A stretch of 64,000 nucleotides of DNA, taken from IMG/VR virus record IMGVR_UViG_3300025168_000065, one strand, 5' to 3'. The stretch is from an uncultured virus (IMG/VR IMGVR_UViG_3300025168_000065) (lineage: Duplodnaviria; Heunggongvirae; Uroviricota; Caudoviricetes; Crassvirales). A program made the translations under genes and the position numbers. Of this stretch, positions 5,773-38,200 are shown piece after piece. Below the pieces are notes generated by a model. It was not told the DNA's origin, searched no databases, and was given only the letters and a program-made list of their open reading frames with translations. Numbering within the stretch: position 1 is the stretch's first letter; each line of letters starts with the position of its first letter.

Positions 5773-8163
5773 ATGGAAATAACAATATTTAAAGATATTA
5801 AAGATACTGCTCAACCTTTTTATAGAGATGTATCAAAGATATTAGAAAGAATTCAATCAGGAGCATCCCAAGACATAGTAAAGTCAATAAGGGTAGAGAA
5901 AGACAAAGAAATAAGAAACCAATTAAAGCAATCATTACCAGCTATATGTTTTAGTGGTAAATTTACAAAAAGAAATGATGTATCATTAAGTCAGCATAGT
6001 GGATTAATATGTTTGGACTTTGATAATTTTCCTTCAGAGAAGTTAATGCTGGAAGAAAAACAAGTTATATCTAAAGATAGATATACATACTCAGTATTTA
6101 TTTCACCAAGTGGATTAGGCTTGAAGGTATTAGTTAAGATACCAGCTGAGTCAGACACACATAAACAATTTTTTAATTCATTACAACATCATTTTAGTAG
6201 TGAGTATTTTGATATATCATGTAAGAATGTATCAAGAGTATGTTATGAATCATATGATCCATTGATATATATTAATGAGCAGTCAAGTGTTTTTAATCAG
6301 ATTATTGAGCAAGAATACCAAGAAGTTATTAAGCATAAAGATGTACAGACTATACCAATTACAGATGAAAATAAGATAGTAGATATTCTTTTAAAGTGGT
6401 GGGAAAGAAAGTACGGACTAAATAGTGGAGAAAGAAATCAAAATGTATTTATATTAGCCTCAGCATTTAATGACTTTGGAGTTAACAAAACTTTAGCAGA
6501 ATATGTTATGGGTAATTTTGCAAGTAAAGATTTTTCTCAAAGCGAAATTAAAAGAACTATTAATTCAGCATATAAGCAAGTACAAAACTTTGGTACTAAA
6601 TATTATGAGGATGAAGAAAAGGTTAATAATGTAAAAAGGAAATTAAGAAAGGGGGCAACTGCCTCTGAAATTAAATCCGAGATTGCAGAGGACTTAAATG
6701 TTGAGGATAATGTTTTAGATAATGTAGTAAGAAGATTAGAGGAAGAACAAGACAAACAAAAATTTTGGACTAAGAGTGAAAAGGGAGTAGTTAAAATAAT
6801 TCATATTGCCTTTAAAGATTTCTTAGAGGATAATGGATTCTATAAATTTAATCCAGAAGGAAGTAAGAACTATGTATTTGTTAGGGTAACTAACAACTTA
6901 ATAGACCATACATCTGAAAAAGAAATAAAGGATTTTGTTTTAAGTTTCTTATTAGATGTAGATGATAAGAGTATATATAATTATTTTGCTGAAAGTGTAA
7001 AGTATTTTAGAGAAGAGTTTCTTACATTATTAGGATCTATTAATGTTTATTTTGTAGCCGACACTAAGGATACTGCTTACCTTTATTATACTAATTGTGC
7101 AGTTAAGATTACTAAAAACGAAATAGTACCTATTGATTATTTAGATTTAGGAGGATATGTTTGGAAGGACCATGTTATTGATAGGGTTTTTGATGTTTGT
7201 GATGTTACTGATTGTGATTTTCAAACCTTTATATCTAATATATCTGGAGGAAACGAAAAAAGAACTAAGTCCATGGAGTCTACTATGGGTTATCTCTTGC
7301 ATGGTTGGAAAAATTTATCTTACTGCCCAGCTACCATACTGAATGATGAGGTTATATCAGATAATCCAGAAGGAGGAACGGGTAAAGGTTTGTTTATGAA
7401 TGGATTGTCTCACATGAAAAAGTTAGTAGTTATAGATGGTAAGTCATTTAACTTTGATAAATCATTTGCTTATCAATTAGTTTCTGCTGATACTCAGATC
7501 CTTTGCTTTGATGATGTAAAGAAACATTTTGACTTTGAGAGATTGTTTAGTGTAGTTACCGAAGGATTAACTCTTGAGAAGAAAAATAAAGACTCAATTA
7601 AAATACCATTTAGTAAATCTCCAAAGGTAGCAATCACTACGAACTATGCTATTAAAGGTAAGGGTAATTCATTTGCGAGAAGAAAGTGGGAATTAGAACT
7701 TAGTCAGTTTTATACCAAAGAGTTTACTCCTCTTGTAGAGTTTGGTAAACTAATGTTTGGAGAGTGGAATGATAATGACTGGTGTCAGTTTGATAACTAC
7801 ATGATCACTTGCCTACAATTACATTTAGATAAAGGATTATTAAAGAGCGACTTTGTAAACCTTAAGACTCGTGTATTATCTGCAGATACTTGTCATGAAT
7901 TTATTGAGTGGTGTGGAGTTATTGATGGAATGAAAAACCCTAAATTAGTTGAGAATAATAGAATATATTCTAATGATTTATATATGGACTTTATTAATGA
8001 GTACCCAGATTACGGACCTAAAGCTAAATTAACTGTGAGCAGAATAAAGTTTGGTAAATGGCTTATGTCTTACGGAACTTATAAATACGACTGCAATCCT
8101 TTAGAGGGTAAAGATATGTTGGGTAAGTGGATAGAATACAGAGACAATGATGATAAAGTTTAG
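5773..8163 (+). CDS. primase-helicase (BT4734/VirE-N-like primase domain, PriCT-like region, SF3-like P-loop helicase)
   Basis: LPAICFSGKF, HSGLICLDFD, FISPSGLGLKV, GERN, Walker A GGTGKG and Walker B ILCFDD. Confidence 0.88.
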   Translation: MEITIFKDIKDTAQPFYRDVSKILERIQSGASQDIVKSIRVEKDKEIRNQLKQSLPAICFSGKFTKRNDVSLSQHSGLICLDFDNFPSEKLMLEEKQVISKDRYTYSVFISPSGLGLKVLVKIPAESDTHKQFFNSLQHHFSSEYFDISCKNVSRVCYESYDPLIYINEQSSVFNQIIEQEYQEVIKHKDVQTIPITDENKIVDILLKWWERKYGLNSGERNQNVFILASAFNDFGVNKTLAEYVMGNFASKDFSQSEIKRTINSAYKQVQNFGTKYYEDEEKVNNVKRKLRKGATASEIKSEIAEDLNVEDNVLDNVVRRLEEEQDKQKFWTKSEKGVVKIIHIAFKDFLEDNGFYKFNPEGSKNYVFVRVTNNLIDHTSEKEIKDFVLSFLLDVDDKSIYNYFAESVKYFREEFLTLLGSINVYFVADTKDTAYLYYTNCAVKITKNEIVPIDYLDLGGYVWKDHVIDRVFDVCDVTDCDFQTFISNISGGNEKRTKSMESTMGYLLHGWKNLSYCPATILNDEVISDNPEGGTGKGLFMNGLSHMKKLVVIDGKSFNFDKSFAYQLVSADTQILCFDDVKKHFDFERLFSVVTEGLTLEKKNKDSIKIPFSKSPKVAITTNYAIKGKGNSFARRKWELELSQFYTKEFTPLVEFGKLMFGEWNDNDWCQFDNYMITCLQLHLDKGLLKSDFVNLKTRVLSADTCHEFIEWCGVIDGMKNPKLVENNRIYSNDLYMDFINEYPDYGPKAKLTVSRIKFGKWLMSYGTYKYDCNPLEGKDMLGKWIEYRDNDDKV

Positions 8164-12733: not shown

Positions 12734-15700
12734 TTATTTCATTGGGTTATCGGAATTCATAGGATCTTTTCCTAACATAGGATTTGTTTTATCATTCATT
12801 GGATCTTCTGAGTTCATAGGATCTCCAGAAATCATAGGGTTACTACCTGCTTTTTTCTTTGCTTTTCTTTTACTTTTTTTATTACGTTTTCTTTCTGCTT
12901 CGTTTTGTATTTGATACTCACTGAAGTTAAACAAACGCATAATTACTTTAGCTGGATCCTCTCCTCCTTCAATAAGTTGTTCCATATTTTTAAATATCTT
13001 ACGAACATTATTTACAGGAAGACCTGTGATCTGAGATGTCTCTGCTAAAGCTTTATACAAAGCCTCTTGTTTTTTCTTAGGATCTTTAGTGTCCCTGTAT
13101 CTTGCAAACCTGTTGAAAACTTCCTCTCCCTGTGTTAGGACAGGAAGGTTTTTAAATTGTAAAAATCTCGCAGGTTTACCAATAATAAGGTCTTTTATTT
13201 TAACAGCAAACTCTCCATAAATAAATAAAGCATTTATATTTCCAAGTATAGCAGCTGTCCCTAAATCTTTTGCATCTTCATCTTCCCAGTCGGCTAACAA
13301 ACCTGGCATTCCATTTGCTACAAACTGAAAGAACACAGGCATAATTACATGATAGGTTAAAAATATACGAGCCGCATCTGTCTTTGTTCCTTTACCTGAC
13401 TTACCTCCTGAAGATGCAAGCCTATACATATTACGAATACCATAAACTTCTTTTCTTAAGTATTGTTTAGGAGTGGTTAAGAACATATTAAGTGCTCTAA
13501 ATATTGGGCCTCTGGTTTGATAGTAGTCTCTATCTTGTAAGTCAGTAGACTGCTGAGATCGTTTAGTGTCTCTTTCAAATTTAACAATAGCCTCATCAAT
13601 TGCTTCCTGTTCTGTCTTACCAGCTTCTAATGCTTTGTTTTTATAGTACACATAGTTAGGAACTCCTCCTAAATAAATTGCACCTCTATCTCCTACCTTT
13701 GTAGTATACATTAAAATATTTATAAGAGATTCTTTATTAGCTCCAGTCATTAATCTTTTACCCCCTATTGTTATATCAGGAAAGACTGACTCCATAGCAT
13801 CATCCGAGTACATCTCAATAGCCTTAGTCATACTCTTAGCATCCCTGTCTTGTAGGTAGGTAGAGTTTTCTGATATCTCTTTCCATATAGCTTTTACATC
13901 TTTACCTTTACCAAATCTACTTAAAGCAGCGTTCTTCATCCAATTACCATAACCTATATCTGATGCGTAAGTTATGAATGATGTTAACTGCTTAAGAGTT
14001 ACTACAGGATTAATACCTAAACGAGATAATATAAATAAATCCTGCATAATATCTACAGCATTATCCATTTGAGCATTTTCTTTAAATGTTCCTTTATTAG
14101 CTATCTTTTGAATAGCCGCTGTAATAGCATCCATAGTAGGTTTACCATGTAACCTTTCAATCTCTGACTTTATAACGTCATTAGTAAATAATTTATTGAT
14201 ATCATTAACAGGACGTGCATAAGCTGAAAAGTATTCCATGTCTCTCATGTAAGTATAAAGAACATTAGTACCATCCATAGGTCTAATTTTTTTCTTATTC
14301 TGCTCTCTCATTTTAGTAGAGTTAGCAGCTACTACATTATGGTATTGGATTTTACCACCATCAGCCCCTGGTATAAGATTAACACCTTCCGCTTCTTGCC
14401 CTTCTCTATAAACCATACCTGCATAGTTTACATTATATGGCATCTGAGTTCTGTATATATCTTGATAAGCTTCATTGTAATGATTATAAAGCATAGGGTA
14501 TAATATTTCTACTTGCCAGTCTGCAAACTCTTTTAAGTTCTTATATTGTTCAGACTCTAATCGGGTAGTTATTTCATTCATTACTTTAGCAACACCCTTT
14601 TCATCTGTGCTAAAAGTTTTTTGTAATCCTGGATGATTAGCAGAGTCTTTATACTGGTTGTATAAGTAATACATTTGATTAGGAGATAAAACCATCTCTG
14701 TTCCATCAGGCAAGACAAAAGCCTCAGTCTTTCTACCAAAAGATGTTACTATAGATTTATATTTTTTACCAAACAACTCTTGAAATTTAGAAATTATTAA
14801 TGCATCATTCATTAACATTCTCCCTTTCATCTCACGATTAGCAGCGTCAATTTTTTTAGTTACCTCTTCTTGAGTATTACCCTCAAATAATTCTGCAGGT
14901 AATAAAGATATTTTATCCATTAATAAAAATAGATCAGAGTTCTTAGCCATAACATTTCCTAATCTTTGTATAATATTATTACCTAATTTTTTAAATCTAT
15001 TTTTTACTTTTTCAATTTTTGCAGTTTCTCTGGCTCTGGTATCTTTAGTTTCTTTAATATTCTCAATGATATCAGTTATTTTATCTTGTATCTCTGCTTC
15101 AGTTGGGTTCTCAACACCTTCCTCTTTTAATTGTTTTTTAGCCTGATCCTTAAAGCTTTCAGTTCTTCCTGTTACATCTAAGAAAACTTGCTCAAATTGT
15201 CTTTGATATTCTAAATGTGCTTTTCTTAATTGCTCTTTAAGTATAGTTCTACCTGCTGTAATTATTTGTTTTAACTCTGTCTCCACTCCAGCTAACACAT
15301 TAACTTTAGTAATGTCTTCATTAGACATTAAGTTATTGGCTTTAACCATATTCATAATGATTTGCAGATCAGCCATCGCAGTATAATCACCTTCGGTTTT
15401 TTCAGGTTGCTTATTAATATTATCGTACTCAGTCTCTAATTTATATATGTATTCTAATACTTTATCCTGAGTAGCTAAACTACCATCATCTATTCTTTTC
15501 TTTAAAGATGCTAATCTTTTTCTTGTAGTCTCATCTATCTTAACACCTTTAAGAATATTACTTATTTTCTTGAGAGTATTTTTAGGATCTAATAAATCAT
15601 CAATAGACTTATGTAGTCTTACATTGTTTTTTTGAGCAGCAAACTCCATAACTTCATTCATTATTTCATTAATGTTATCTTTATTAGCTTGCTCAATCTT

Positions 15701-18700
15701 TCTCATTAACTTAATAGCTTCTGACTTACTATATATATCTGCAGGTAAAGTCTTACGCATAAAGTTTCTAAGCTCTCTTTGTATTTTTCTTAATTCTTTT
15801 TTACCTTTAGTCTTAGCTCTTAATATTATTCTGGCTTTACGGATAGCCGCATTCAAGTTTGTACTTTGCTTACCACCTAAAGCTTTAGCAACATCCATTT
15901 CTAATACCATCTGCTCAGTAGAAATTCCTTTCAGTACAGCATCAGCCATTTTTTTATACTCAGGCTGTGCTCTTAAGAAATCCATAGCCTGATCCATTAT
16001 CTCTTGTTCTGATAGTTTGGTTTTAGCTTTAGCATTTTTAGTTATTAACTTATTATAATGATTAGAAACTTTATTAAATAATTTAATACCAGCCTTCATA
16101 CCCCCTACTATATTACCCATTGATGGTGGTATAATACTAAGAAGGTCTGCATTTACTTTCATTAAGTCTCTAACCTCAGTCTTAGTAAACTTTCTTACTC
16201 TTGTTAAGTAATCAAGAATAGCAGGATCTGTAAAGTTTAAGTCTCTTGCTTTATTAATTATCTGTAATGGTGTATCAAACTTATTAAAAGTCTTTTGTGC
16301 TTTCTCATCTACACTTCTTTGTGCTTTTTCTTTAGTAGGTGTATATACCTTACCATCTGGTTGGATTAATTTATATCCAGTAAGCTCACCTATATCTCCT
16401 CTTTTTACTTCTACTTTGAACCCTAATGAGTTTGCCCAGTCTTCTAAAGCTACTCTATTAACTCCTGGCTTATTAAAGATAACACCATTCTTTTTCATCT
16501 CATACATCTTAGCCAGTCTATCTACTGAAGCTTTCTGTGCTTTTTCAGTAGCAGGTTTAGTAATAGACTTAACCGCTGTACCTACAGCTCCACCATAGGG
16601 AGCTATACTTGAAGTTTGTTCCGAAATACCTTTACCTTCTATTTTTGCTTTAATAGCTTCAGGCATTATTTCTTTTGCATTTAATTTAATATCAGGTACC
16701 CCTACAACTTCACCTAATATATCATAAGCATAAGTAGAGTGATTGGATTTACCACCTACAGAAGTTGGTTTTAACACCATCATAATATCATTCTGAGCAA
16801 ATTCGTTTTCTTTATAGAAACCATCTCTTAAAGATTGTAAATCTACAAATCCACCTAATGTATTTACCAGTGCATGAAATTTAGTATTAGGTTTTTTAGA
16901 TTGTTCATTTACTGCTATTAAAAAAGTTTTTCTTTTAGGGCTTCTTCTCATCGCAGGCCAGCTATCAAACTCTTCTAAAGTTTCTCTAATATTTTTAACT
17001 GGATTAGTTGCTAATGCTTTTTTCTTAAATGTATTATAATCACCTAAGTTATTAGCATACTTATCAAATACTTTTTTGTTAAATAACTTACTGGTTTCTG
17101 GAGAACCACTTATAATAAATATAAAATCAGCAGCAGTTATATTTTTGTCTAATTTTTTAGTATCTAAACCACTTGCCCATATAGCTCCTTTCTTTATATT
17201 TTCAGGTTGTAATGCAAAACTTGGACCTGCATCCATACCATTACCTAATCCTAATTGATCCGCTACCCAAAACCAAACTTTCTGGTCATTCTTAATTATG
17301 TTATCTACTAATCCTAATAAATCAATCTTATTTTTAGGAGTAACTAAAGACATATCATAAGACTTCTTAAAATCTATCTGAGGCTTTTCTGTTTTAGATG
17401 GTTTATTAATAGTGGTTGGAGTTCCAATAGGAGCTGTTCCGTCATCTATCACTTCTATATCTCCTTCTGTAACTTCTGTTCCCTCTCTTACTTTCTTAGA
17501 TACTGTGTTGAAGAACTCAATCATATCAGCCTCTTCCTTAGTAAACTCTGTTATGTTAACAGGTAAACCAACAGCTTTAGCTGCTTTCTGTAACCATCTC
17601 TTTACTATATTTTTAGTTGGCCCATCTAACTGCGTATAAGCTGCAGATAAATATCCAAACAACTCAGACACTTGCTCTTCATTTTGTTCTTCAATAGCAT
17701 AGTCTTTAGCAAAATCTTCTATAACTTCTTTTAAATTAGAATCTTTAGGCATTGCTTTTACTACAGCATCTAACATTCTCTTTGTAACTTTATTAAAGTC
17801 TGCATTGATTCCCAGTTTCTTTAATAGCACTGCGTGCATAACCTCATGGGCAACAGTTCTGGTATTAGCCTTAGGAGCGTTGATATGAATAGTATTAGTT
17901 GTGGGAGAAAAGGTTCCTCGTGTTCCTTTGTTTGCCGCACTAACTGCTTGATTATAAGCGTCTTCTGTAGCGTGAAGCACAATATTGGCATTAGGCATTA
18001 ACTTAGCAATAGCCTTACCTGCATTCTTAGCTTGTCTTAATAAAGAAGGAAGAATCCTTACTGCTTTAGGATCACCTGCAGTTTCAGTTACACTTACATT
18101 TTCACTTACACTTACACCTGGTAGTGTTACCTTTGTCCCATCATTTTTTTCTATAGTAACATTATCATTTTCACTATCTACTTCAACTCCTTTAGTTTTA
18201 ACCTTAGAATCAGTTTGTTCAGGAGTTCCTTCTTGCTCCTGCATACCTGTTTGTTCATTAAATATAGATGTTAAATCTTCTACTTCCTCTTGCGTCTGCG
18301 AGTCAATATCTGTTTCACTTTCGATACTTTCCTGGGCAGGCTCCCCTTGGGTGTCTCGCTCTCCCACTTCTTGGCTACCCTCGGTAGATTCTTGTACATC
18401 CACTTTCTTTGGGCTTGACTTTTGAATGGCATCTCTTTTAGTTTTAATTTGTTCAGGAGTTGGGTTCTCTACTCCCTCCTCTTTTAATTCATTTATTGCC
18501 TGAGTATTTAACTCAGTCTCTTGTGCTTCTTGTTGGTTTTGTATATTACCAGATCGAACTATTCTTTCTACATCATTCTCTAAATCTAACAACTCTTGTT
18601 GTTGTCTTTTAGTTAATTGTTTATTATATTTATCTATATCATCTTGAAGTTCTTGCTGTCTTAAAAGATTACCAAGTAACTCTTTCTTTTGATTAGTAGG

Positions 18701-21013
18701 AAGGTCAGATGGTATTTGATCCATAACACCATTAACTTTATCATACATATCAATTTCACGCTGTCCTTCCTCTTTAGTAATTTCATTATTTAAAATACGC
18801 TCTTTAGTTTTTTGAATAAACGCATCTCTTACTACAGGTTCGTTATGAATATCTTCATACATTTCAAATATACCATCAGCTAATTTGGTAAAGTCTCCAG
18901 TAGATGCTACAGTTGCAATAGCTGAAGGAGTACCAATTACAAATCCTCCCACTGCCTCTTGTGCTCCTGCTCTTATTACTTGCTTAACCCCATCTCCAAA
19001 TGACTCAGGAGTATTAAACATATCTTTACCTTTCATAGCATTATAAGCTTCTTTAAAACCTATATCAGCAATTTCTTGTGCTAAACCTGTTTCAAACTCA
19101 GCAAGTCCCGCTGCACTTACTACTAACGATCCTTGCGCAATCATACTATTTACTTCTTTTTTAACTACTTCTCTAAAAGTTTTTCCTGTAATATCTTTCC
19201 CATGCTTATTAAGAACTTTTAATAATACTTTACTTGCTAAACCTTTCTGAGCAATAGCATTTCTAAACCCAAGATTTTCTAACACACCAACTACTATACC
19301 TAAAGGAATAGTAAACTTAACTTTTTCTCCTTCTGTTACATCATCAAACTCAGGATTGTTAGCCATCTCCTCCATTACATGATCCTCTACTTGAGATATC
19401 ATATTAAAAACTCTTATTGGTGCAGGCCCTAACATAGCTGGTATAGACTCAGTTACTCCTAAAAGAGCACCGCCCCAAAAACCTTCTTTGGTTTTTTTAG
19501 TTGCCTCAATAGTAGTTTCAGACATTCCTATTGTTTCTCTTAAGCCTCCTCTTACCGCTGGTATTACGTCAGATTTAATATCTTTTCTTAACTCGTCTAA
19601 AATTTTAGATTCTATATCATCTAATAAAGTTGTAGTTACTTTTCGAGTAGAAGCAGGGGTACCATCTTTTATAGATCTTGCTGATTTAATTTCTTTAGTA
19701 GTTCCTGGAGTTTTTTCTATTAACTCTAAAAATCTTTCATACTCTTCATTATTAGAAATAATTTCTTGTATTCTTTCATCTGTGTATGTATCTCCTAAGG
19801 CACCTGATTCTCTTGCTTTAGTAAGAACTTTTGTCCTATAATCATCTTCACTCATTAATCCACTACCCACTGGTCCTTGTACATAAGTTCCAAAATCAAT
19901 AATTCTATTTGCATTTTGAGTAGCTATACGTGCAGCTCCATCTAAAAAAGCATTATATCCTAAGCCTAAAACACTCTTTTGCTTAGACCTCATTTCATAC
20001 CAATCACCTAAACTCTCATCTAACTCTTTACTTTTAGTTCGTAAATTCTTTTGAGATGTTCTAATGTTTTGTTGAGCAATAGCAAGTTTCTCTGCAAGAA
20101 CTTTAGGTGTTGTTGACATTTGATTTCCATCAGGGCCTTCTACATATATTACTTCATCAGGATCTTTTTCTTCTATATTATTAGAATCATAAAAATTTTT
20201 AGCAGCTAAATATTCTTCTATTTCATTTTTTATTAAAGAAGCTTCATCACTAAAACTTTTATTTATTTCATCAACTTCTTTTTTATTTTGAATCTTGGCT
20301 TGTTTTTTAATATATCCTGACTCTAATTGCTGCAGCTTAGAACTTTCTTCTTTATTATCTTTTAAAAATTGTTTAAGTTCATCTGAATATTTACCTTTAA
20401 AGAATAATGCATCTAACTCTACACTCAACTTTTCTCCATTAGCCGCTTCTACTTTCATTTCATCTCCAGTAAAATCTGCTTCTTTAAAAGTAAATCCGTA
20501 GTCATTAAAATGATAGTTCATTAAAGGAACTACATTCTCTTCTGTTTTAGAAATAAGGTCTGGTGTAATTTGTTGTAAAGACTCCTCAAAAAAATCTGTA
20601 GTATCCTCTTGATCAGGAGTAACAAATTCTGTTTCTTCAGTAGATATAGTTTCAGGTTGTATTAAATCTTCAGGATTTACCTGATTTCCTGCCCCTATAT
20701 TTGTAGTTTCAACATCATTAGTTTCGGTTTCCAAAGACTCCGATGAGCCAGGTTCTTGAACCTCCTCTGTATCTGACACCATAACTTCCTCTTCTCCAGT
20801 ACCATTGCCAACAAGATTTTTTTTTTCACCGATACCAAATAAAGTTACGAAGTCATTAACAGTTCCATTATATCCTGTTTCAACAAAGTGTTTATAGGTA
20901 TCATTAACAGCATCTTCATTGGTATTAAGGAGTGCTTTATAATCATCTATTGTACCTTGGTATCCTGTCTCTACAAAATATTGGTACCCGTCATTAATTG
21001 CTTCTTCGTTCAT
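12734..21013 (-). CDS. giant internal virion/ejection (polyvalent-type) protein with zincin-like HExxH motif
   Basis: 2759 aa; TIHINAP..RTVAHEVMH; third of three internal-protein genes after the tail genes. Confidence 0.75.
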   Translation of the reverse strand: MNEEAINDGYQYFVETGYQGTIDDYKALLNTNEDAVNDTYKHFVETGYNGTVNDFVTLFGIGEKKNLVGNGTGEEEVMVSDTEEVQEPGSSESLETETNDVETTNIGAGNQVNPEDLIQPETISTEETEFVTPDQEDTTDFFEESLQQITPDLISKTEENVVPLMNYHFNDYGFTFKEADFTGDEMKVEAANGEKLSVELDALFFKGKYSDELKQFLKDNKEESSKLQQLESGYIKKQAKIQNKKEVDEINKSFSDEASLIKNEIEEYLAAKNFYDSNNIEEKDPDEVIYVEGPDGNQMSTTPKVLAEKLAIAQQNIRTSQKNLRTKSKELDESLGDWYEMRSKQKSVLGLGYNAFLDGAARIATQNANRIIDFGTYVQGPVGSGLMSEDDYRTKVLTKARESGALGDTYTDERIQEIISNNEEYERFLELIEKTPGTTKEIKSARSIKDGTPASTRKVTTTLLDDIESKILDELRKDIKSDVIPAVRGGLRETIGMSETTIEATKKTKEGFWGGALLGVTESIPAMLGPAPIRVFNMISQVEDHVMEEMANNPEFDDVTEGEKVKFTIPLGIVVGVLENLGFRNAIAQKGLASKVLLKVLNKHGKDITGKTFREVVKKEVNSMIAQGSLVVSAAGLAEFETGLAQEIADIGFKEAYNAMKGKDMFNTPESFGDGVKQVIRAGAQEAVGGFVIGTPSAIATVASTGDFTKLADGIFEMYEDIHNEPVVRDAFIQKTKERILNNEITKEEGQREIDMYDKVNGVMDQIPSDLPTNQKKELLGNLLRQQELQDDIDKYNKQLTKRQQQELLDLENDVERIVRSGNIQNQQEAQETELNTQAINELKEEGVENPTPEQIKTKRDAIQKSSPKKVDVQESTEGSQEVGERDTQGEPAQESIESETDIDSQTQEEVEDLTSIFNEQTGMQEQEGTPEQTDSKVKTKGVEVDSENDNVTIEKNDGTKVTLPGVSVSENVSVTETAGDPKAVRILPSLLRQAKNAGKAIAKLMPNANIVLHATEDAYNQAVSAANKGTRGTFSPTTNTIHINAPKANTRTVAHEVMHAVLLKKLGINADFNKVTKRMLDAVVKAMPKDSNLKEVIEDFAKDYAIEEQNEEQVSELFGYLSAAYTQLDGPTKNIVKRWLQKAAKAVGLPVNITEFTKEEADMIEFFNTVSKKVREGTEVTEGDIEVIDDGTAPIGTPTTINKPSKTEKPQIDFKKSYDMSLVTPKNKIDLLGLVDNIIKNDQKVWFWVADQLGLGNGMDAGPSFALQPENIKKGAIWASGLDTKKLDKNITAADFIFIISGSPETSKLFNKKVFDKYANNLGDYNTFKKKALATNPVKNIRETLEEFDSWPAMRRSPKRKTFLIAVNEQSKKPNTKFHALVNTLGGFVDLQSLRDGFYKENEFAQNDIMMVLKPTSVGGKSNHSTYAYDILGEVVGVPDIKLNAKEIMPEAIKAKIEGKGISEQTSSIAPYGGAVGTAVKSITKPATEKAQKASVDRLAKMYEMKKNGVIFNKPGVNRVALEDWANSLGFKVEVKRGDIGELTGYKLIQPDGKVYTPTKEKAQRSVDEKAQKTFNKFDTPLQIINKARDLNFTDPAILDYLTRVRKFTKTEVRDLMKVNADLLSIIPPSMGNIVGGMKAGIKLFNKVSNHYNKLITKNAKAKTKLSEQEIMDQAMDFLRAQPEYKKMADAVLKGISTEQMVLEMDVAKALGGKQSTNLNAAIRKARIILRAKTKGKKELRKIQRELRNFMRKTLPADIYSKSEAIKLMRKIEQANKDNINEIMNEVMEFAAQKNNVRLHKSIDDLLDPKNTLKKISNILKGVKIDETTRKRLASLKKRIDDGSLATQDKVLEYIYKLETEYDNINKQPEKTEGDYTAMADLQIIMNMVKANNLMSNEDITKVNVLAGVETELKQIITAGRTILKEQLRKAHLEYQRQFEQVFLDVTGRTESFKDQAKKQLKEEGVENPTEAEIQDKITDIIENIKETKDTRARETAKIEKVKNRFKKLGNNIIQRLGNVMAKNSDLFLLMDKISLLPAELFEGNTQEEVTKKIDAANREMKGRMLMNDALIISKFQELFGKKYKSIVTSFGRKTEAFVLPDGTEMVLSPNQMYYLYNQYKDSANHPGLQKTFSTDEKGVAKVMNEITTRLESEQYKNLKEFADWQVEILYPMLYNHYNEAYQDIYRTQMPYNVNYAGMVYREGQEAEGVNLIPGADGGKIQYHNVVAANSTKMREQNKKKIRPMDGTNVLYTYMRDMEYFSAYARPVNDINKLFTNDVIKSEIERLHGKPTMDAITAAIQKIANKGTFKENAQMDNAVDIMQDLFILSRLGINPVVTLKQLTSFITYASDIGYGNWMKNAALSRFGKGKDVKAIWKEISENSTYLQDRDAKSMTKAIEMYSDDAMESVFPDITIGGKRLMTGANKESLINILMYTTKVGDRGAIYLGGVPNYVYYKNKALEAGKTEQEAIDEAIVKFERDTKRSQQSTDLQDRDYYQTRGPIFRALNMFLTTPKQYLRKEVYGIRNMYRLASSGGKSGKGTKTDAARIFLTYHVIMPVFFQFVANGMPGLLADWEDEDAKDLGTAAILGNINALFIYGEFAVKIKDLIIGKPARFLQFKNLPVLTQGEEVFNRFARYRDTKDPKKKQEALYKALAETSQITGLPVNNVRKIFKNMEQLIEGGEDPAKVIMRLFNFSEYQIQNEAERKRNKKSKRKAKKKAGSNPMISGDPMNSEDPMNDKTNPMLGKDPMNSDNPMK
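18280..18432 (-). CDS. overprinted 50-aa basic protein MPFKSQAQRKWMY...
   Basis: Alternative-frame ORF with ATG and TAG, A-rich upstream leader and locally raised GC. Confidence 0.7.
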   Translation of the reverse strand: MPFKSQAQRKWMYKNLPRVAKKWESETPKGSLPRKVSKVKQILTRRRKRK

Positions 21014-26459: not shown

Positions 26460-29400
26460 TTAACATGTTCCACTATTTATTACCACACCATTTTGACCAA
26501 GTTGAATCCATTTTTTTGGTGACGTTGTTGATGGGTTATTTACGTCAACTATATAAAAACCAGTACCTAAAAATCCTTCAAAAAACAAAGTTCCATTTAC
26601 ATTAACTTGTGCATTTGGATTACAAGTATTAGTACTGTCCATATAACATATGTCTCCAATTGTAGGGGTACTATAAGCACCAGAGAATGATTTCAATCCT
26701 AAACTTAAAGGACTATTTGTATCAGTAGCACATACTTGTGTAGCATTCTGTGTTTGTGGGCCAAAGTAACATGTGTTACATGGAGGAGTACAAGTACAAC
26801 AAGCTTCTTCAATAGTTGATCCCCCTGTACAATAGCATACTGATTGACTTGTTATCATTCTTAAATCCCATATTAAATATAAATAATCATTAACAGCAGG
26901 CATATTAAAAGCTGGTTCAGTAGCCTGAAACACACCTGTAGATGGATTAGTTATAGGACCACTAACTACTGATGATGCCGCAAGTAAACTGGCAATATCT
27001 GCAGTACTATTACTATACAAAGTACTTGAAGATAATATTTTAAAACTATGTAATGCAGGATCAAAATCAAAATTATCAGGAATAATTTTTTGAGTCCTTA
27101 TATTTATATCTGAACCTGTAGATGGGAAAACACCAACTCCTCTTACCCCTGTAGATGATTGATATATTGCTGGTTGAGATGTTGTTAAAGCTGCTGCCGT
27201 TAAATTATAAGGACTTATTGTAGGAGTGTTAGTCCAATTATAAGATGTATGAATAAACTCATTAACATAATTTGGAGAATTAACCACAACCTGAACAACT
27301 GTTAAAGGTATGGTTGGCGGACACTCTATTGTTATCTCATAGCTACTTAAATTATTAACTGTAATATCTACATTAGCTTGTGCCGATGGAAGAGATTTGT
27401 TAAAACTTAATGTTCCTGCACCTGTTAATCCTACTTGATTTATAACTACCGAACCGTTCCAAGTAATAACTATATCAATAGACCCTAAAGTTATATTGTA
27501 TGGTATATTAACTTGACCTGTTACTGTTCCTAAAGAAACATTGTAATTTAAATTATCAGTAGTACTATACTGAGTTAATGTAGTACCACAAGGAACCTTA
27601 GCTCCTGGAATAAATATACCAGTGTTGTTTGTAGTTAAAACATACTCATTCATATAAGGATCATAACCTCCTAATTTTTGAGTAGCAAGTTGAGCGTTAA
27701 ATCTATCTCTAAACCAAGAGTTCATACCATATTGTGACACAACTTGTAGTTGATCACTACCTTGAGATGCACCTCTTAAGTTAAGTACAGCTCCTCTTTT
27801 GGTATCTGTAAAAAACATATCATATCCCCAAGAGGTAAAACTTTCAGGATTAAAACTAATTCCAAATTCTTCTATTCGTGCTACCTGAGTTCCTAATATT
27901 TCAGGTACAGATGCAATTGCACCACCACCTGTAGAGTCAGTAATAACATTTTTCTTTACTAATACATATGATATTTTATCTTCTTGCAATGTAAGAATGT
28001 CTGTTTCTCTTGCGTGTAATTTCATGATAGGACCAAAAGAAGTTTCGCAATCTTTAAAGTTTACTAAACCTAAATTAAACTCATTTAAGTTATTACTGTT
28101 AGCGGCCCCACTATACACACCGCTGTATGTCATTCCTGCAAAACGGTCAGCCTCTTTAAAGTCTTGATTAGAAACTGCTAATACTCTTTCTCCTAAATTA
28201 AAAAACTTACCTGCTGGACTATCTCCAATTCTATAACTCTCAACACCATTTCCAAATGTATAACAATTATATGCAGTTAAGTCTGTAGTTAAATCTGTAG
28301 TTGGACTTTGATTAACAGAGTTAGGAGCTAAACTATAAGTGTTAGACTGAACGTCATATATAGTATTAGCCATATGATAAGGCTGAGCACCTGCAGTTTG
28401 AGGTTCAATATCTAATAGTTCTGATGCATCATAAAATAAATTAGGGTCTGCATCTTGAGGCACAGTTTCAAATACAAATAAAGATCCCCCTCTTGTAACC
28501 TCTATAAGTGTACTACAATGACCATTATAATATTCAAATGCTTCCCAACAACGAGGAATATTACAAGTATTTACAAAAAATTGTCTACCATTTGTAGCTT
28601 GTCTTATTCTACACACACTATTAAATTGATTTTCTGTACACCCACTTCCTGATGTAACCAGAACTGGATCAAAAGATATAGCCATTTCTTGAGCAGTACT
28701 TGCCTGTTGAGTTGTCATTTGACTTGCAAGATCATCTCCTACAGCCCAAGCGTGAAAGCTTTGGTAATCTGAAGTAGAAACAAAAGACCTATCGTAAGTT
28801 AAACTCTTACTATCACAATCGCCTCCGCCTCCGCCTCTCCAATTACGAATTTTAATTCTTATAGTTGATCCAGCAGGAATGGTATAAGGAACACTTGGAG
28901 TAGCATTATCATTTAAACTATAATTACTGATACATCCATCTTTAAAATTACCTGCATCATTTGCATCTTTAGACATTCTTCCTCTAAAGTAAGAAGGCTC
29001 TGTGCTTTCAATATTAAAACTACCTGGTTTTAATAACATATAAAGACCAGCTAAAGAAACACTCGTTATCTCTTTAGTAGCAAAAGCCTCTACTGCTAAA
29101 ACAGTTGTAGACACTTCTGATGCTACCGCACCTCCTGTGTCCACCTTTACTATTAATTCATCTCCAACTTTTACTAAGTTTTGATTATTACCCTCTAACT
29201 TAAACCACACTAAACTTGGGTCGTTTTCATTAGTCAGACCACTACTTACTCCTGACTGTTTACCTGATCCATCTTGCTGGTAAAAAGTATTTGAAAAAAT
29301 AGTCATATAATTCCCTTCACTTGGCTTTATTACAAACTTATATTTCTTTGCCCAATAAGGAGGTAAGTTACTTAAAGTAACTCGTATTTTATTTTTATAA

Positions 29401-31700
29401 GTTGACTTGTCAGGTTCAACAAATACAGTGTTAGTATCAGAGACTAATACTGTAGATGATCTACCGTAGTCATCCATATACACAACGCCTACTTCGTAAT
29501 CTCTATTTGAATGTAGACTGTTTGTTTTACTTACCTGCCTGTATCCAGCAGTACATCCATACCCTATAAAGTTATAATAAATAAATGCTTCACTATAATT
29601 TGAGGAAGCAGGTGAAGTTCCGTCTGTATAATAATATTGAGTAGCAGGAAGCTCCAGAATGAAACCACCAGCAGTTGCTGTAAACTCAATACCTGAAGGG
29701 CTACACAATGCAGAGCTTCCAGATGCAGGAGTTATTTGATAATTTACCCCACTTGTTTCTAAAGTTACTAAACCACCATTTATATCTGTTAACCCTAAGT
29801 CATTGGCTGCTATTGAATTAACACTTGCTGTTAATCCTGTAGTCATATCCATTACTATATCTCCTACTGCTAATCCAGCAATTAAAGTAAAGTCTATATT
29901 TGAATTGGTTAAAAATCCTGCAACAGCTGCGTCTGTAGCTCCTGAAGTAATAATAGTATTACTACATGTTAAAGGAAAAGATGATGGAGTACATTGTTGT
30001 GCTACCGTTCTTCCACCATTAATTAATTCTAAGTTAGTTCCTGTCATAGGAGTTACTGCAGCTTCATAAAACTTATCTGAAAGTGTAGCTCCTTCATTTG
30101 AATTATAACAAGGATAAAGCTCTTGAATTGAGTTAGAACTAAATCCTTGAGCAATAGAACCTCCTATTCTTTCTTTAAACTCTTGAGATGCACACATTTG
30201 TGTTACATTAGGATAGTCAACAGAACACGTAAAACTCATTCTAATTGTAAAAGGAGACTGCTGATTAAAATTATTTCCATTATTAGTACTACACTCTACC
30301 CCTGTACCGGAATCATTACAGGTAATACTGTTTTGAGAAATAGAAAAACCAAAGAAAAAAGTAGTCCCTGTTTTTATATCTCCTGAAGTTGGATTTGCAG
30401 CCGTTAGATCCCATGTTAATCGAGAGTCGGTACCTAAAGCTCCGCCTCCTATAGTATAAGCAGAAGTCTGTACAAGTGGATTTGCAGCTACTGCAGGAAC
30501 ACCACCTTGAGCAGGACTTGCAACCGATCCATTTCCTAAAGGAACTCCCGCTATCTCTTCAAAGACAGGAGCTACAGTATAATTTATAGGTATTTTATTC
30601 CCATCAAAAGCAGAAAGTAAATCATAACCATCCACATAGTTTCCGTATATTAATCTATTACCTTTAATGGTTTGAGCCTTAGCAGTTCTTGGAACATTAT
30701 CATAAAGTCTTAGTAATTCATCTGAACCTAATGTGGTATAGATTTCACTATTTGTAAATCGATGAGTCATAGTATCATTATTAGGAATACCTAAGTCATC
30801 TTTTTTAAATCTTTTAATAACATTTATAACATTAGATGTAGTTTGTTTAAATAACAAATCTATTTCTACTACTCTTTTAGTACCTGTAGAGAATGTAACA
30901 TCAAAAGCTTTATAAACATTATACATCCCTGCATTTAAATAGTCATCAATACTAAATCTAAATTCACGAGGTTGAAACGCAGGATCACTAAATAAAGATA
31001 TTGCACTATACCCTCCATCTGTATATCTATATCTATAAGCAAAAGTAACAAACCTGGTTTGTAAATAATTTTCTTGACCTACATAGTCCTGTATAGGAAC
31101 CACTACTGGAGATCCTAACGGAAAATTTTGTCCTGCCGTAGTATCAAACTCTTCGTATCCTGGTGGCTTAACTATTACGCTAATATCTTCTTCTTTAAAT
31201 ATAGTATCTATACCGCCTACAGGATAATCATAGTCTCTTGTTACATTAATTACTCGAGGAGGATTTATATCGTCAGTAAAAAATAATAAATCTTCTATCT
31301 TATTTATACCAGTAATTAAATGTTTTTCATCAAAATTTAAAACAGATGTACTTATACAGTGATAAGTCAAAGAAGAAGTATTGGTATTAAAAGATACTAT
31401 TAAGTCAACCTTACCTGTAGGAGAGTTTGGATTATTACTATCATGTATAAACCAATAAAGAGTTTCATTTATACCATCTTCATAAACTCCAAGTGTCTTT
31501 CCATTGACTGTTTGCCCTGCATATTCAACATTAGTTAAAAGAGAATTACCTTTAGAGTTTTCTACAGCTCCTATTTCAGTAGCTTCAGTAGACCCTAAAC
31601 GAACATTTAAAGCATCTATATACTCTCCAGGTGGAACCAAGCGTTCATCAACGCTCTTATTCATTTTACCTGCTATAAAATTTGTTGAGGCTTTTGCCAT
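26460..31700 (-). CDS. tail nozzle / stabilization protein
   Basis: GKMNKSVDERLVPPGEYIDALN, NRLIYGNY, FGNGVES, FGISFNPESF and LGGYDPY motifs. Confidence 0.75.
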   Translation of the reverse strand: MAKASTNFIAGKMNKSVDERLVPPGEYIDALNVRLGSTEATEIGAVENSKGNSLLTNVEYAGQTVNGKTLGVYEDGINETLYWFIHDSNNPNSPTGKVDLIVSFNTNTSSLTYHCISTSVLNFDEKHLITGINKIEDLLFFTDDINPPRVINVTRDYDYPVGGIDTIFKEEDISVIVKPPGYEEFDTTAGQNFPLGSPVVVPIQDYVGQENYLQTRFVTFAYRYRYTDGGYSAISLFSDPAFQPREFRFSIDDYLNAGMYNVYKAFDVTFSTGTKRVVEIDLLFKQTTSNVINVIKRFKKDDLGIPNNDTMTHRFTNSEIYTTLGSDELLRLYDNVPRTAKAQTIKGNRLIYGNYVDGYDLLSAFDGNKIPINYTVAPVFEEIAGVPLGNGSVASPAQGGVPAVAANPLVQTSAYTIGGGALGTDSRLTWDLTAANPTSGDIKTGTTFFFGFSISQNSITCNDSGTGVECSTNNGNNFNQQSPFTIRMSFTCSVDYPNVTQMCASQEFKERIGGSIAQGFSSNSIQELYPCYNSNEGATLSDKFYEAAVTPMTGTNLELINGGRTVAQQCTPSSFPLTCSNTIITSGATDAAVAGFLTNSNIDFTLIAGLAVGDIVMDMTTGLTASVNSIAANDLGLTDINGGLVTLETSGVNYQITPASGSSALCSPSGIEFTATAGGFILELPATQYYYTDGTSPASSNYSEAFIYYNFIGYGCTAGYRQVSKTNSLHSNRDYEVGVVYMDDYGRSSTVLVSDTNTVFVEPDKSTYKNKIRVTLSNLPPYWAKKYKFVIKPSEGNYMTIFSNTFYQQDGSGKQSGVSSGLTNENDPSLVWFKLEGNNQNLVKVGDELIVKVDTGGAVASEVSTTVLAVEAFATKEITSVSLAGLYMLLKPGSFNIESTEPSYFRGRMSKDANDAGNFKDGCISNYSLNDNATPSVPYTIPAGSTIRIKIRNWRGGGGGDCDSKSLTYDRSFVSTSDYQSFHAWAVGDDLASQMTTQQASTAQEMAISFDPVLVTSGSGCTENQFNSVCRIRQATNGRQFFVNTCNIPRCWEAFEYYNGHCSTLIEVTRGGSLFVFETVPQDADPNLFYDASELLDIEPQTAGAQPYHMANTIYDVQSNTYSLAPNSVNQSPTTDLTTDLTAYNCYTFGNGVESYRIGDSPAGKFFNLGERVLAVSNQDFKEADRFAGMTYSGVYSGAANSNNLNEFNLGLVNFKDCETSFGPIMKLHARETDILTLQEDKISYVLVKKNVITDSTGGGAIASVPEILGTQVARIEEFGISFNPESFTSWGYDMFFTDTKRGAVLNLRGASQGSDQLQVVSQYGMNSWFRDRFNAQLATQKLGGYDPYMNEYVLTTNNTGIFIPGAKVPCGTTLTQYSTTDNLNYNVSLGTVTGQVNIPYNITLGSIDIVITWNGSVVINQVGLTGAGTLSFNKSLPSAQANVDITVNNLSSYEITIECPPTIPLTVVQVVVNSPNYVNEFIHTSYNWTNTPTISPYNLTAAALTTSQPAIYQSSTGVRGVGVFPSTGSDINIRTQKIIPDNFDFDPALHSFKILSSSTLYSNSTADIASLLAASSVVSGPITNPSTGVFQATEPAFNMPAVNDYLYLIWDLRMITSQSVCYCTGGSTIEEACCTCTPPCNTCYFGPQTQNATQVCATDTNSPLSLGLKSFSGAYSTPTIGDICYMDSTNTCNPNAQVNVNGTLFFEGFLGTGFYIVDVNNPSTTSPKKWIQLGQNGVVINSGTC

Positions 31701-37096: not shown

Positions 37097-38200
37097 TTAT
37101 ACTTTTTTTATACTTCTTATTTTGAGTCCTTTACCACTACTATTATCACCTACGGTTCTAATCTTCAATCCATCTTTACTGAATGTCTGAGGAGTTTTAC
37201 GCATGTCCATATTAATGTTTTTAGATTTCTTAGTAACATTATCTACAGCTTCGGTCATCCCCTGATTGTAAAAAAATTCAGCAAATTTGTCGAGATTCAT
37301 AGCTACCGACATAGCTCTATGATATCCTTGAGCGTCATTCATCAATCCTGACTCTGCATCCATATACTTGTTTACAAAGTTGTTTACATTAGATTGTTTA
37401 CTTTTTAACTCATCTCTATCACCAGGTTTAAAGTTAAAACTTTTTTCTCCGATATTGAACTCAAAACCTTTGAACTCATCGTTAAAAACCTCATCAGTCT
37501 TTGATAAAAAATAGTCATACCTTTTCTTCTGTGCTTCTTTAGCAGTGTTAGATTCCTCTACATAACTTTTATAGCTATTAAATTCTTCCATGTTCTCTTT
37601 AGATAAACCCTTCCCACTTGACTCAAGAGGAAGTTTATATTTATCTTTTTGTTCATTTAAAAACTTTTTAGCTTTTACAAGTTCTCTTTTTTTGGCTAAT
37701 TGCTTTTTCTTAATATCTTTAGCATCATCTAAATCTTCGTCAAACGAAAACTTATCTTCTATAATGTCTGAGATATCACTACTATCCAACCCTTCTTCTG
37801 TTGAATTGTAATAAGCTCTTAGCACTTGGTCACCATCCATTTCATCATAGTCCTTTTGTAATTTTACAAAGTCTTCGATTCCACGTCCAGTTTCTTTTTT
37901 GTACTTAAAATATGCTGAGACATCTTCAGGTAAATCTTCATTTGATTCTTTCGTTTCAAATAATTGATCTACTGAATCTATGTCTTTATCATATCTGCTT
38001 TTAATATATGAAAGAACGTCTGCATCATTTAACTCTGGTGCGGGAGTTTCTTCTTTTACTTCTATTTTTTCTGGCTCTGAATCTTTATTTTCTGTTGATT
38101 CAAATTTTTCTTCATGTTCTTTAAGTAGTTTTTCTTCTATTTCTACTTTGGATTTTTCAACCCCTGTCACATCTTTTACTATAATTTTTTGCTCGTCCAT
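37097..38200 (-). CDS. capsid scaffolding protein
   Basis: Highly acidic and helical; between portal and capsid; TAACTTTG box at 38221-38228. Confidence 0.75.
   Translation of the reverse strand: MDEQKIIVKDVTGVEKSKVEIEEKLLKEHEEKFESTENKDSEPEKIEVKEETPAPELNDADVLSYIKSRYDKDIDSVDQLFETKESNEDLPEDVSAYFKYKKETGRGIEDFVKLQKDYDEMDGDQVLRAYYNSTEEGLDSSDISDIIEDKFSFDEDLDDAKDIKKKQLAKKRELVKAKKFLNEQKDKYKLPLESSGKGLSKENMEEFNSYKSYVEESNTAKEAQKKRYDYFLSKTDEVFNDEFKGFEFNIGEKSFNFKPGDRDELKSKQSNVNNFVNKYMDAESGLMNDAQGYHRAMSVAMNLDKFAEFFYNQGMTEAVDNVTKKSKNINMDMRKTPQTFSKDGLKIRTVGDNSSGKGLKIRSIKKV

Follow-up and report, generated by a model that had tools for sequence, protein, structure and literature searches.

Nested genes are textbook material for phages; convincing cases are few and come mostly from genetics. 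Among the closest described systems are the embedded spanins Rz/Rz1 of phage lambda and its relatives, in which a short gene lies wholly inside a longer gene on the same strand in the +1 frame, and which elsewhere overlap or are separate. The nested product of the Rz1 type is an outer-membrane lipoprotein with a signal peptide and a lipobox cysteine, and its host gene encodes a membrane protein of the lysis cassette. The classical overprinted genes are B in A and E in D of phiX174; in the textbook case, the nested frame is young and arose de novo. Here we describe a small gene nested in a giant virion-protein gene of an uncultured Crassvirales virus (IMG/VR record IMGVR_UViG_3300025168_000065), in a stretch of 64,000 nucleotides (nt) called the window in the following. 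Overprinting in general is covered by a review (PMC8227390). A bacterial point of comparison is GndA inside gnd of Escherichia coli, described as a peptide of fewer than 60 amino acids (aa) whose translation starts inside a housekeeping mRNA, in a different frame (PMC11230408).

The original prediction, made from the letters alone, had proposed that an overprinted gene is hidden in the giant open reading frame (ORF). The features concerned are:

18280..18432, minus strand: nested gene for a small basic protein, ATG at 18432 to TAG at 18280, 50 codons plus the TAG
12734..21013, minus strand: host gene for a giant protein of virion or cargo type, 2759 aa, the last gene of the minus-strand structural block
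18433..18462, minus strand: putative internal translation-initiation region within the giant ORF, A-rich, unstructured, with no Shine-Dalgarno (SD) motif
18197..18415, minus strand: predicted disordered acidic linker of the host frame (giant residues 867-939), whose first ~45 residues share bases with the nested gene
17991..17821, minus strand: second +1-frame ORF in the giant gene, 56 aa, hydrophobic, used as a negative control

We consider it very likely that the ORF at 18432..18280 is a functional gene for a protein, nested in the giant gene in its +1 frame, and that this stretch is truly dual-coding. Its start lies 2581 nt (1 mod 3) past the start of the 2759-aa ORF (21013..12734, minus strand), which places it in the +1 frame. 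Translation from ATG 18432 to TAG 18280 returned exactly the 50-aa peptide that had been quoted, MPFKSQAQRKWMYKNLPRVAKKWESETPKGSLPRKVSKVKQILTRRRKRK, which is of the type MPFKS...ETPKG..LPKKV followed by a Lys/Arg tail, has a net charge of about +16 and contains neither a cysteine nor a hydrophobic leader. The compositional features on which the prediction had drawn were recovered as well: the leader, gaacaaattaaaactaaaagag, has 65% A in the last 20 nt before the ATG, GC content is 0.49 over the ORF compared to 0.33 in the 3 kb flanks (with the maximum of the GC profile, 0.45, at 18225-18449), and the host frame reads an acidic stretch at this site, DAIQKSSPKKVDVQESTEGSQEVGERDTQGEPAQESIESETDIDSQTQEEV. 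An AlphaFold2 model of the peptide, based on an alignment of 70 sequences, reached a mean predicted local distance difference test score (pLDDT) of 81.9 and predicts with confidence a small fold of three helices, at residues 6-15, 17-26 and 38-49, the last of which is basic and preceded by a loop. No relative of the peptide was found in the PDB by sequence or by Foldseek with this model.

The suggestion made in the prediction that the peptide resembles a family of small basic proteins encoded by stand-alone phage genes proved correct. In a search of 5.8e9 proteins limited to lengths of 27-88 aa, 63 of 63 candidates matched at E-values of at most 5.6e-5 (best 1.9e-10), all of them gene calls of 38-74 aa starting with MPFKS. 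A profile search of 1.84 billion cluster representatives yielded 4348 at E≤1e-3 and 859 at E≤1e-10, so that the proposed check against phage proteins returned stand-alone homologs in abundance. As used here, the family is set by the alignments A1 and A4. Its members, of ~40-50 aa, combine an invariant MPFKS N-terminus, a two-helix core, an ETPKG..LP loop and a Lys/Arg tail, with the consensus MPFKSQAQRKWMYANxPxMAKxWEKETPKGKKLPKKVKK. The window peptide retains all invariant residues (M1, P2, F3, K4, S5, Q8 and P17) as well as the near-invariant R9, A20, W23, E26, T27, P28, K29, L32 and P33 and the Lys/Arg-rich tail. The module is N-terminal in all of the best 150 representatives, mostly from residue 1 and otherwise within the first 53 residues. 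A free N-terminus, and with it a start codon of its own, thus seems to be required, which would explain why the small gene has kept a separate frame instead of being fused in frame to preceding sequence. Many longer relatives, of 100-761 aa, carry the MPFKS module at their N-termini, and it may serve as an adaptor that is reused at the head of different payloads. In five of these proteins (P0100, P0113, P0157, P0169 and P0184) the N-terminal module is accompanied by Gly-rich hydrophobic, glycine-zipper-like C-terminal segments.

Copies of the gene are present in GenBank phages, largely without annotation. A stand-alone copy in phage 023Pt_psg01 is annotated as hypothetical, and stand-alone, unannotated copies occur in phages C75C1 and Synechococcus phage S-CBS2. 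Three unannotated family genes are located as follows:

6001-6132 of locus L001 (MW202828.1): nested in a coding sequence (CDS) labeled 'reticulocyte binding/rhoptry protein'
1501-1605 of locus L003 (OQ984151.1): free copy in an apparent intergenic gap
1501-1611 of locus L004 (GU936714.1): free copy in an apparent intergenic gap

Searches of the peptide against Pfam and NCBIfam gave no match. The sole library family touching it was phrog_1375, a PHROG without function (peptide P0001, residues 3-34, not significant with an E-value of 0.11); the N-terminal module of 12 of 50 longer members matched the same profile at E≤1e-4 with partial coverage, the match spanning only profile positions 17-46 of 70. 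DUF3008 (PF11450), the nearest named cluster in a language-model atlas (score 0.86), likewise comprises small viral proteins of similar size, but was not confirmed as a relative: none of 53 members of the MPFKS family matched the Pfam model at E≤10. The DUF3008 model also gave no match in 15 phage records, nine of them with the small gene, where the positive control gave none either. In the open-access library searched, we found no description of this family, nor of nesting within the giant virion genes of phages.

To follow the gene through related phages, we used two sets of loci. Seeding IMG/VR with the small family gave at least 418 confirmed loci among at least 600 pattern matches, of which the best 80 were used; seeding with only the N-terminal 70 aa of the giant protein, and thus blind to the small ORF, gave 80 further loci. 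Scanning every locus (165 sources) in six frames with a hidden Markov model (HMM) returned 124 matches, of which 121 were usable, representing 111 distinct genes. We called a copy nested if it is enclosed by a longer stop-free frame reaching at least 20 codons beyond both of its ends. By this definition, 59 of the 111 genes are nested; in three the frame is open but not extended, and in 49 it is closed. In all 59 nested copies, the host codon begins one base ahead of the small ATG (host +1). The other same-strand frame encloses the gene in just one of the 111 cases, at high GC and without an upstream start codon. The start codon is ATG in 110 copies and GTG in one.

Among the 80 blind loci, 32 carry a nested copy (all host +1), seven have the gene directly behind the giant ORF, 18 are complete giants without the gene, and the remaining 23 are not assessable. 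In the seven, the gap from the giant's stop codon is 1-12 nt; the giant gene of one of them (L129) is split in two. Carriers have exactly one copy, as counted in five of five positive controls and in four of four GenBank carriers, and the nested ORF is also the only copy in the window (local HMM E-value 1.1e-23). The ORF is intact in the close relatives L085, L086, L087 and L008, and none of 80 host-linker motifs lacks an intact small ORF. The frame was therefore retained in related giants without interruption, and neither of the two observations named beforehand as speaking against such a gene, the lack of stand-alone homologs and frequent stop codons in related genomes, was made.

Nesting extends beyond close relatives. 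A blastn search with 3 kb around the site against GenBank phages gave no match, and in the nearest record (G001), a 26.8-kb fragment, the small gene is missing. The best GenBank tblastn match to the peptide lies inside another giant CDS (MW202828.1), as an intact 43-aa ORF in the same relative frame; the two giant proteins share no similarity around the site detectable by BLASTP (best E-value 0.49). Of the host genes, 46 encode mutually related giant proteins in the parts following the linker, with the preceding parts falling into four clusters. Nine further hosts form a family of ~400 aa adjacent to the portal gene, and one host gene encodes a large terminase, in which the small gene spans residues 61-104. 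In L056, one of the ~400-aa hosts (408 aa) is 35% identical over 280 aa (E-value 5e-49) to a protein of the window:

37097..38200, minus strand: 367-aa gene between the portal gene and a major-capsid-like gene; its homolog hosts the nested gene in related phages, with no copy here

The flanking proteins of L056 correspond to those of the window too (portal 48% identical, capsid-like 479-aa protein 50% identical). The small gene thus occupies different structural genes within one phage family. An origin of the ~400-aa hosts as pieces of giant genes was rejected, given their homology to the portal-adjacent 367-aa gene.

When peptides were assigned to their nearest neighbors by BLOSUM score, 85 of 98 shared the nested or free state of their neighbor, compared to a mean of 48.7 and a maximum of 75 in label shuffles. 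Judged by these peptide similarities, the nested or free state is inherited, and the 59 nested cases represent few independent events, probably four or more. Peptides encoded behind giant genes are closest to giant-nested peptides, and the terminase-nested copy is closest to free copies, which implies several independent nestings. One giant gene (L141, 10004-18776, the same locus as L021) is collinear with both halves of the window giant and has no nested copy; its small gene lies 10 nt behind the giant's stop codon, so the position of the small gene has shifted relative to homologous host domains.

The likeness to Rz/Rz1 therefore extends to the range of arrangements, as the small gene is likewise found nested, directly adjacent behind the host stop codon, or free. 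In contrast to Rz1, the nested product lacks cysteine and is predicted to be a very basic, soluble helical peptide rather than a lipoprotein. Virion, packaging or cargo genes take the place of the lysis-cassette gene as hosts, and one and the same small gene is nested in at least three unrelated host genes.

We then compared selection on the two frames by the ratio of nonsynonymous to synonymous differences per site (pN/pS) over codons 2-30, in 21 non-overlapping, independent pairs of nested copies and 19 pairs of stand-alone copies. In the nested pairs, pN/pS was 0.24 for the small and 2.04 for the host frame; all 21 pairs had the lower value in the small frame (sign test p=9.5e-7). The stand-alone pairs gave 0.18 for the small frame and 2.03 for the same, here virtual and non-coding, host frame. 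Taking all nested pairs, the ratios were 0.41 and 1.37 (1033 pairs), and 0.19 and 1.87 for the 65 close pairs. These ratios indicate purifying selection on the nested small frame as in stand-alone copies, in agreement with the dual coding originally proposed, and no constraint on the host amino acids here beyond a stop-free and hydrophilic or acidic reading. The host-frame motif DAIQE.S...VDV.E was considered as a selected protein motif and ruled out by the host-frame ratio of about 2.

The same asymmetry is seen in individual comparisons. Between the window and its closest relative, L085, the ORF differs at 10 bases, of which seven are silent in the small frame and eight alter a host residue; the remaining three nucleotides cause K10R and R34K in the small protein. 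Compared to L086, seven of 50 residues of the small protein differ, mainly in the tail, and 14 of 51 in the host stretch. The nested stretch is more diverged than its flanks, with 143 of 153 bases identical compared to 97-100% in most neighboring 150-nt bins. In an alignment of 14 divergent giants, conserved host-frame columns occur only over the nested gene, and the linker sequence flanking it cannot be aligned between giants even though the nested gene is conserved.

These data bear on the possibility that the small gene is a relic, captured when two ORFs fused and no longer expressed, the conservation of which is a by-product of constraint on the giant linker. Its expression is indeed deduced from sequence, the host frame has demonstrably been maintained free of stops over this stretch, and some related phages live without the small gene. 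However, the host-frame ratio in nested copies equals that of the non-coding virtual frame, in all 21 pairs the small frame has the lower ratio, its ATG is almost invariably retained, no decayed copy was found among the 80 linker motifs, and the flanking linker has diverged beyond alignment where the nested gene has not. We therefore regard a relic as improbable.

How the host frame is kept open can be seen in codon choice. Phe-3 is encoded by TTC in all 46 nested copies analyzed but in only 17 of 49 stand-alone copies, because TTT at this position would give TAA in the host frame. The wobble base of Pro-2 is T in none of the 46 nested copies, compared to 17 of 49 stand-alone copies. More generally, T is nearly absent from third positions of the small frame in nested copies, and G is enriched. 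The entropy of the three codon positions is 0.78, 0.58 and 1.10 bits in nested compared to 0.85, 0.61 and 1.50 bits in stand-alone copies; the constraint on the first and second positions thus equals that in free copies. The GC peak at the nested ORF results from this codon choice, as does the mirroring of the Lys/Arg-rich peptide (about +16) by a Glu/Asp-rich host stretch (about -11).

Translation of the small protein would start by internal initiation at its own ATG on the late mRNA of the giant gene. The 65% A of the leader is reached by only 1.4% of 20-nt windows on the minus strand (rank 0.024 within the giant gene), and the minimum free energy of the start region (-30 to +20) is -0.8 kcal/mol compared to a background of -5.14 kcal/mol (rank 0.057). 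This resembles the 44 clear gene starts of the window, whose leaders average 54% A and whose start regions average -1.65 kcal/mol; none of the 44 has an SD core of at least 5 nt. Such A-rich, unstructured starts without SD motifs are expected for a host of the Bacteroidota type. In the 48 nested copies within hosts below 45% GC, leaders average 62.5% A, with a mean rank in the host gene of 0.058. In hosts of at least 45% GC, an SD core of at least 4 nt is present in eight of 11. SD cores of 6 nt precede the copies in L013, L036 and L054 (42-44% GC) and L067 (63% GC), at a rank of about 0.01. The start region falls into the least-structured 10% of the host gene in 43 of the 59 nested cases (median rank 0.051). 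Among free copies, 34 of 52 begin at most 15 nt from the stop codon of the upstream gene, 12 of them by a TAATG overlap.

Programmed frameshifting would provide another use of the second frame, either +1 from the giant frame, giving a truncated N-terminal product with a basic tail, or -1 from the small frame, grafting MPFKS onto the C-terminal 1850 aa. In favor of this, the frames adjoin each other, and the longer proteins headed by the module are natural precedents for its union with a large protein. Against this speak the gene-start features directly upstream of the nested ATG, the retention in nested copies of that ATG and of the invariant N-terminal Met-Pro-Phe, and the fact that nested ORFs finish with the same Lys/Arg tail and stop codon as stand-alone genes; a slippery site was not noticed, though no search was aimed at slippery heptamers. 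We consider frameshifting even less probable than a relic.

By length alone, the nested ORF is within chance: the giant gene contains 98 same-strand ATG ORFs in alternative frames, two of them of at least 50 aa, and 300 codon shuffles gave a mean of 0.41 ORFs of this length, with at least one in 34% of the shuffles. Homology and conservation go beyond chance. A chance ORF with a spurious, compositional family resemblance, as might arise in a Lys/Glu-rich coding region where GAA/AAG-type repeats encode Glu or, one frame on, Lys, can be dismissed with near certainty as far as sequence comparison reaches, since it is the non-repetitive core (MPFKSQAQRKWMY.N.P..AKKWE.ETPKG) that matches, at E-values down to the 1.9e-10 given above, every invariant residue is retained, nesting recurs in dozens of divergent genes, and the 56-aa control ORF, interrupted by stop codons in two of three close relatives (L085, L086), is not conserved.

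Like the phiX174-type pairs, the stretch at 18432..18280 encodes two unrelated proteins, one frame being ordered and conserved and the other disordered and fast-evolving. It differs in that the nested frame has thousands of stand-alone relatives among widely differing phages and the enclosing frame is unconstrained over the overlap, and for these reasons the long gene appears to have engulfed an older short one. With GndA, it shares a nested same-strand ORF of fewer than 60 aa with an internal start; those cases are lineage-restricted, whereas here a large mobile family has free-living copies, which makes for an unusually clean evolutionary test. The term overprinted gene in the original prediction thus holds for a nested, dual-coding gene, but probably not for a novelty overprinted onto the giant gene. 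Going by its thousands of relatives, the small gene is probably older and widespread and came to be read through by the giant ORF. Most likely, a large ORF became extended through a pre-existing, tightly coupled small gene. Stop loss or recombination could have brought this about, since intermediates exist in which the small gene lies 4-15 nt behind the giant's stop codon.

Several points weigh against the functional reading or limit the data behind it. The gene is accessory or dispensable in this phage group, since 18 complete giants lack it, and none of the 23 records without a nested gene (six of them at least 90% complete) carries a copy elsewhere. The comparative sets are phylogenetically structured, and 13 of the 59 nested copies, which carry indels, were excluded from the codon analyses. 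Translation of the nested ORF is suggested by start signals at the sequence level, and the low-structure signal is in part due to the first 20 nt of the ORF, which the copies have in common. Contigs from RNA libraries (four runs) covered only 17603-18118 and 18851-19131 and none the ORF, which is uninformative either way; the region is contained in 14 marine metagenome runs. Any functional guess draws on gene neighborhood and charge only and is correspondingly weak.

That the small gene is free, adjacent and nested in many lineages amounts to a natural experiment, in which the coexistence of these states makes selection on each frame measurable against a built-in control. It also makes clear that, where two genes overlap, the enclosing one can be the 'younger' reading. 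The giant virion or cargo genes of abundant marine phages of the flavobacterial type conceal an unannotated gene, and gene callers that bar long same-strand overlaps would overlook it systematically. A family of this size (4348 representative clusters), without an assigned function and tied to packaging genes, is a worthwhile experimental target.

The genomic context of free copies points toward the phage head. They lie between terminase and portal genes in L076, L042, L038, L066, L071 and L014, directly before the portal gene in L052 and L065, and shortly after it in L047, L083 and L032; other free copies adjoin unrelated genes. Nested copies sit in the terminase gene, the portal-adjacent gene or giant genes of the virion block. 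In one longer relative, the module is fused to a segment common to minor-head and DarB-like polyvalent proteins. The C-terminal 988 aa of the giant protein are 21.6% identical to gp74 of Tenacibaculum phage Gundel_1, annotated as 'structural protein'; the part of PMC8776804 consulted gives no proteomic basis for this label. Gene neighborhood, the fusion in the longer relative, the likeness to Gundel_1 and charge together suggest a head-associated role in binding nucleic acid or cargo. It is possible, and we put this forward tentatively, that the small protein is a head-associated microprotein that binds nucleic acid or acidic cargo and is co-expressed with packaging and cargo genes. A complex prediction for the window portal and the small protein scored 0.00, with controls not run, and counts neither for nor against binding.

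A broader and considerably more speculative reading, which we regard as doubtful, would make the MPFKS microprotein the product of an ancient 'rider' gene that moves as a nomad among the head modules of phages. Needing a free N-terminus, it would dock at the end of or inside nearby large packaging or cargo genes and be engulfed repeatedly, the same bases then encoding the peptide and a giant injected protein, and the +16 peptide and the acidic giant linker would form a charge-complementary pair, the peptide escorting or neutralizing the acidic cargo protein or adjacent packed DNA in the capsid. If true, nesting would come about here in a new way, an old gene being engulfed instead of a new one being born, with built-in functional coupling.

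The giant gene itself has as neighbors genes for terminase, portal, a crAss muzzle-like protein and virion structural PHROGs. Its product gave no match to Pfam, PHROGs or PDB sequences. In an AlphaFold2 model of giant residues 760-1060 (alignment of 14 sequences), pLDDT is below 50 (about 30) at residues 867-939 (model residues 108-180). Helices are predicted up to residue 866, and the low-scoring segment is succeeded by a beta-rich domain and then an HExxH motif. According to this model, the host stretch over the nested gene is a disordered interdomain linker. Further features of the giant gene and of other genes in the window are:

17834-17848, minus strand: HExxH motif (HEVMH), giant residues 1056-1060, after the beta-rich domain
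20834-21013, minus strand: two N-terminal tandem repeats of ~30 aa in the giant protein (residues 1-60), NEEAINDGYQYFVETGYQGTIDDYKALL / NEDAVNDTYKHFVETGYNGTVNDFVTLF
12734-12850, minus strand: C-terminus of the giant protein, with a Lys-rich run followed by ~35 final residues that form a short DPMN-like repeat (…NPMISGDPMNSEDPMNDKTNPMLGKDPMNSDNPMK)
26460-31700, minus strand: 1746-aa protein matching the crAss muzzle protein PF25731 (E-value 1.6e-12) and phrog_14478
57984-59579, minus strand: GroEL-like chaperonin (phrog_5725, E-value 2e-134)

The HEVMH sequence suggests that the giant protein contains a metallopeptidase domain of the zincin type; for a related metagenomic giant, a zincin family of Pfam matched at sub-threshold level. 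The N-terminal repeat motif is kept at the N-termini of giant ORFs in 80 IMG/VR loci (81 confirmed among 128 pattern matches), and the C-terminal DPMN-like repeat might be a targeting or processing tail. From the matches to PF25731 and phrog_14478, the phage has tail and muzzle parts in common with crAss-like viruses. A GroEL-like gene also adjoins a free copy of the small gene in L079.

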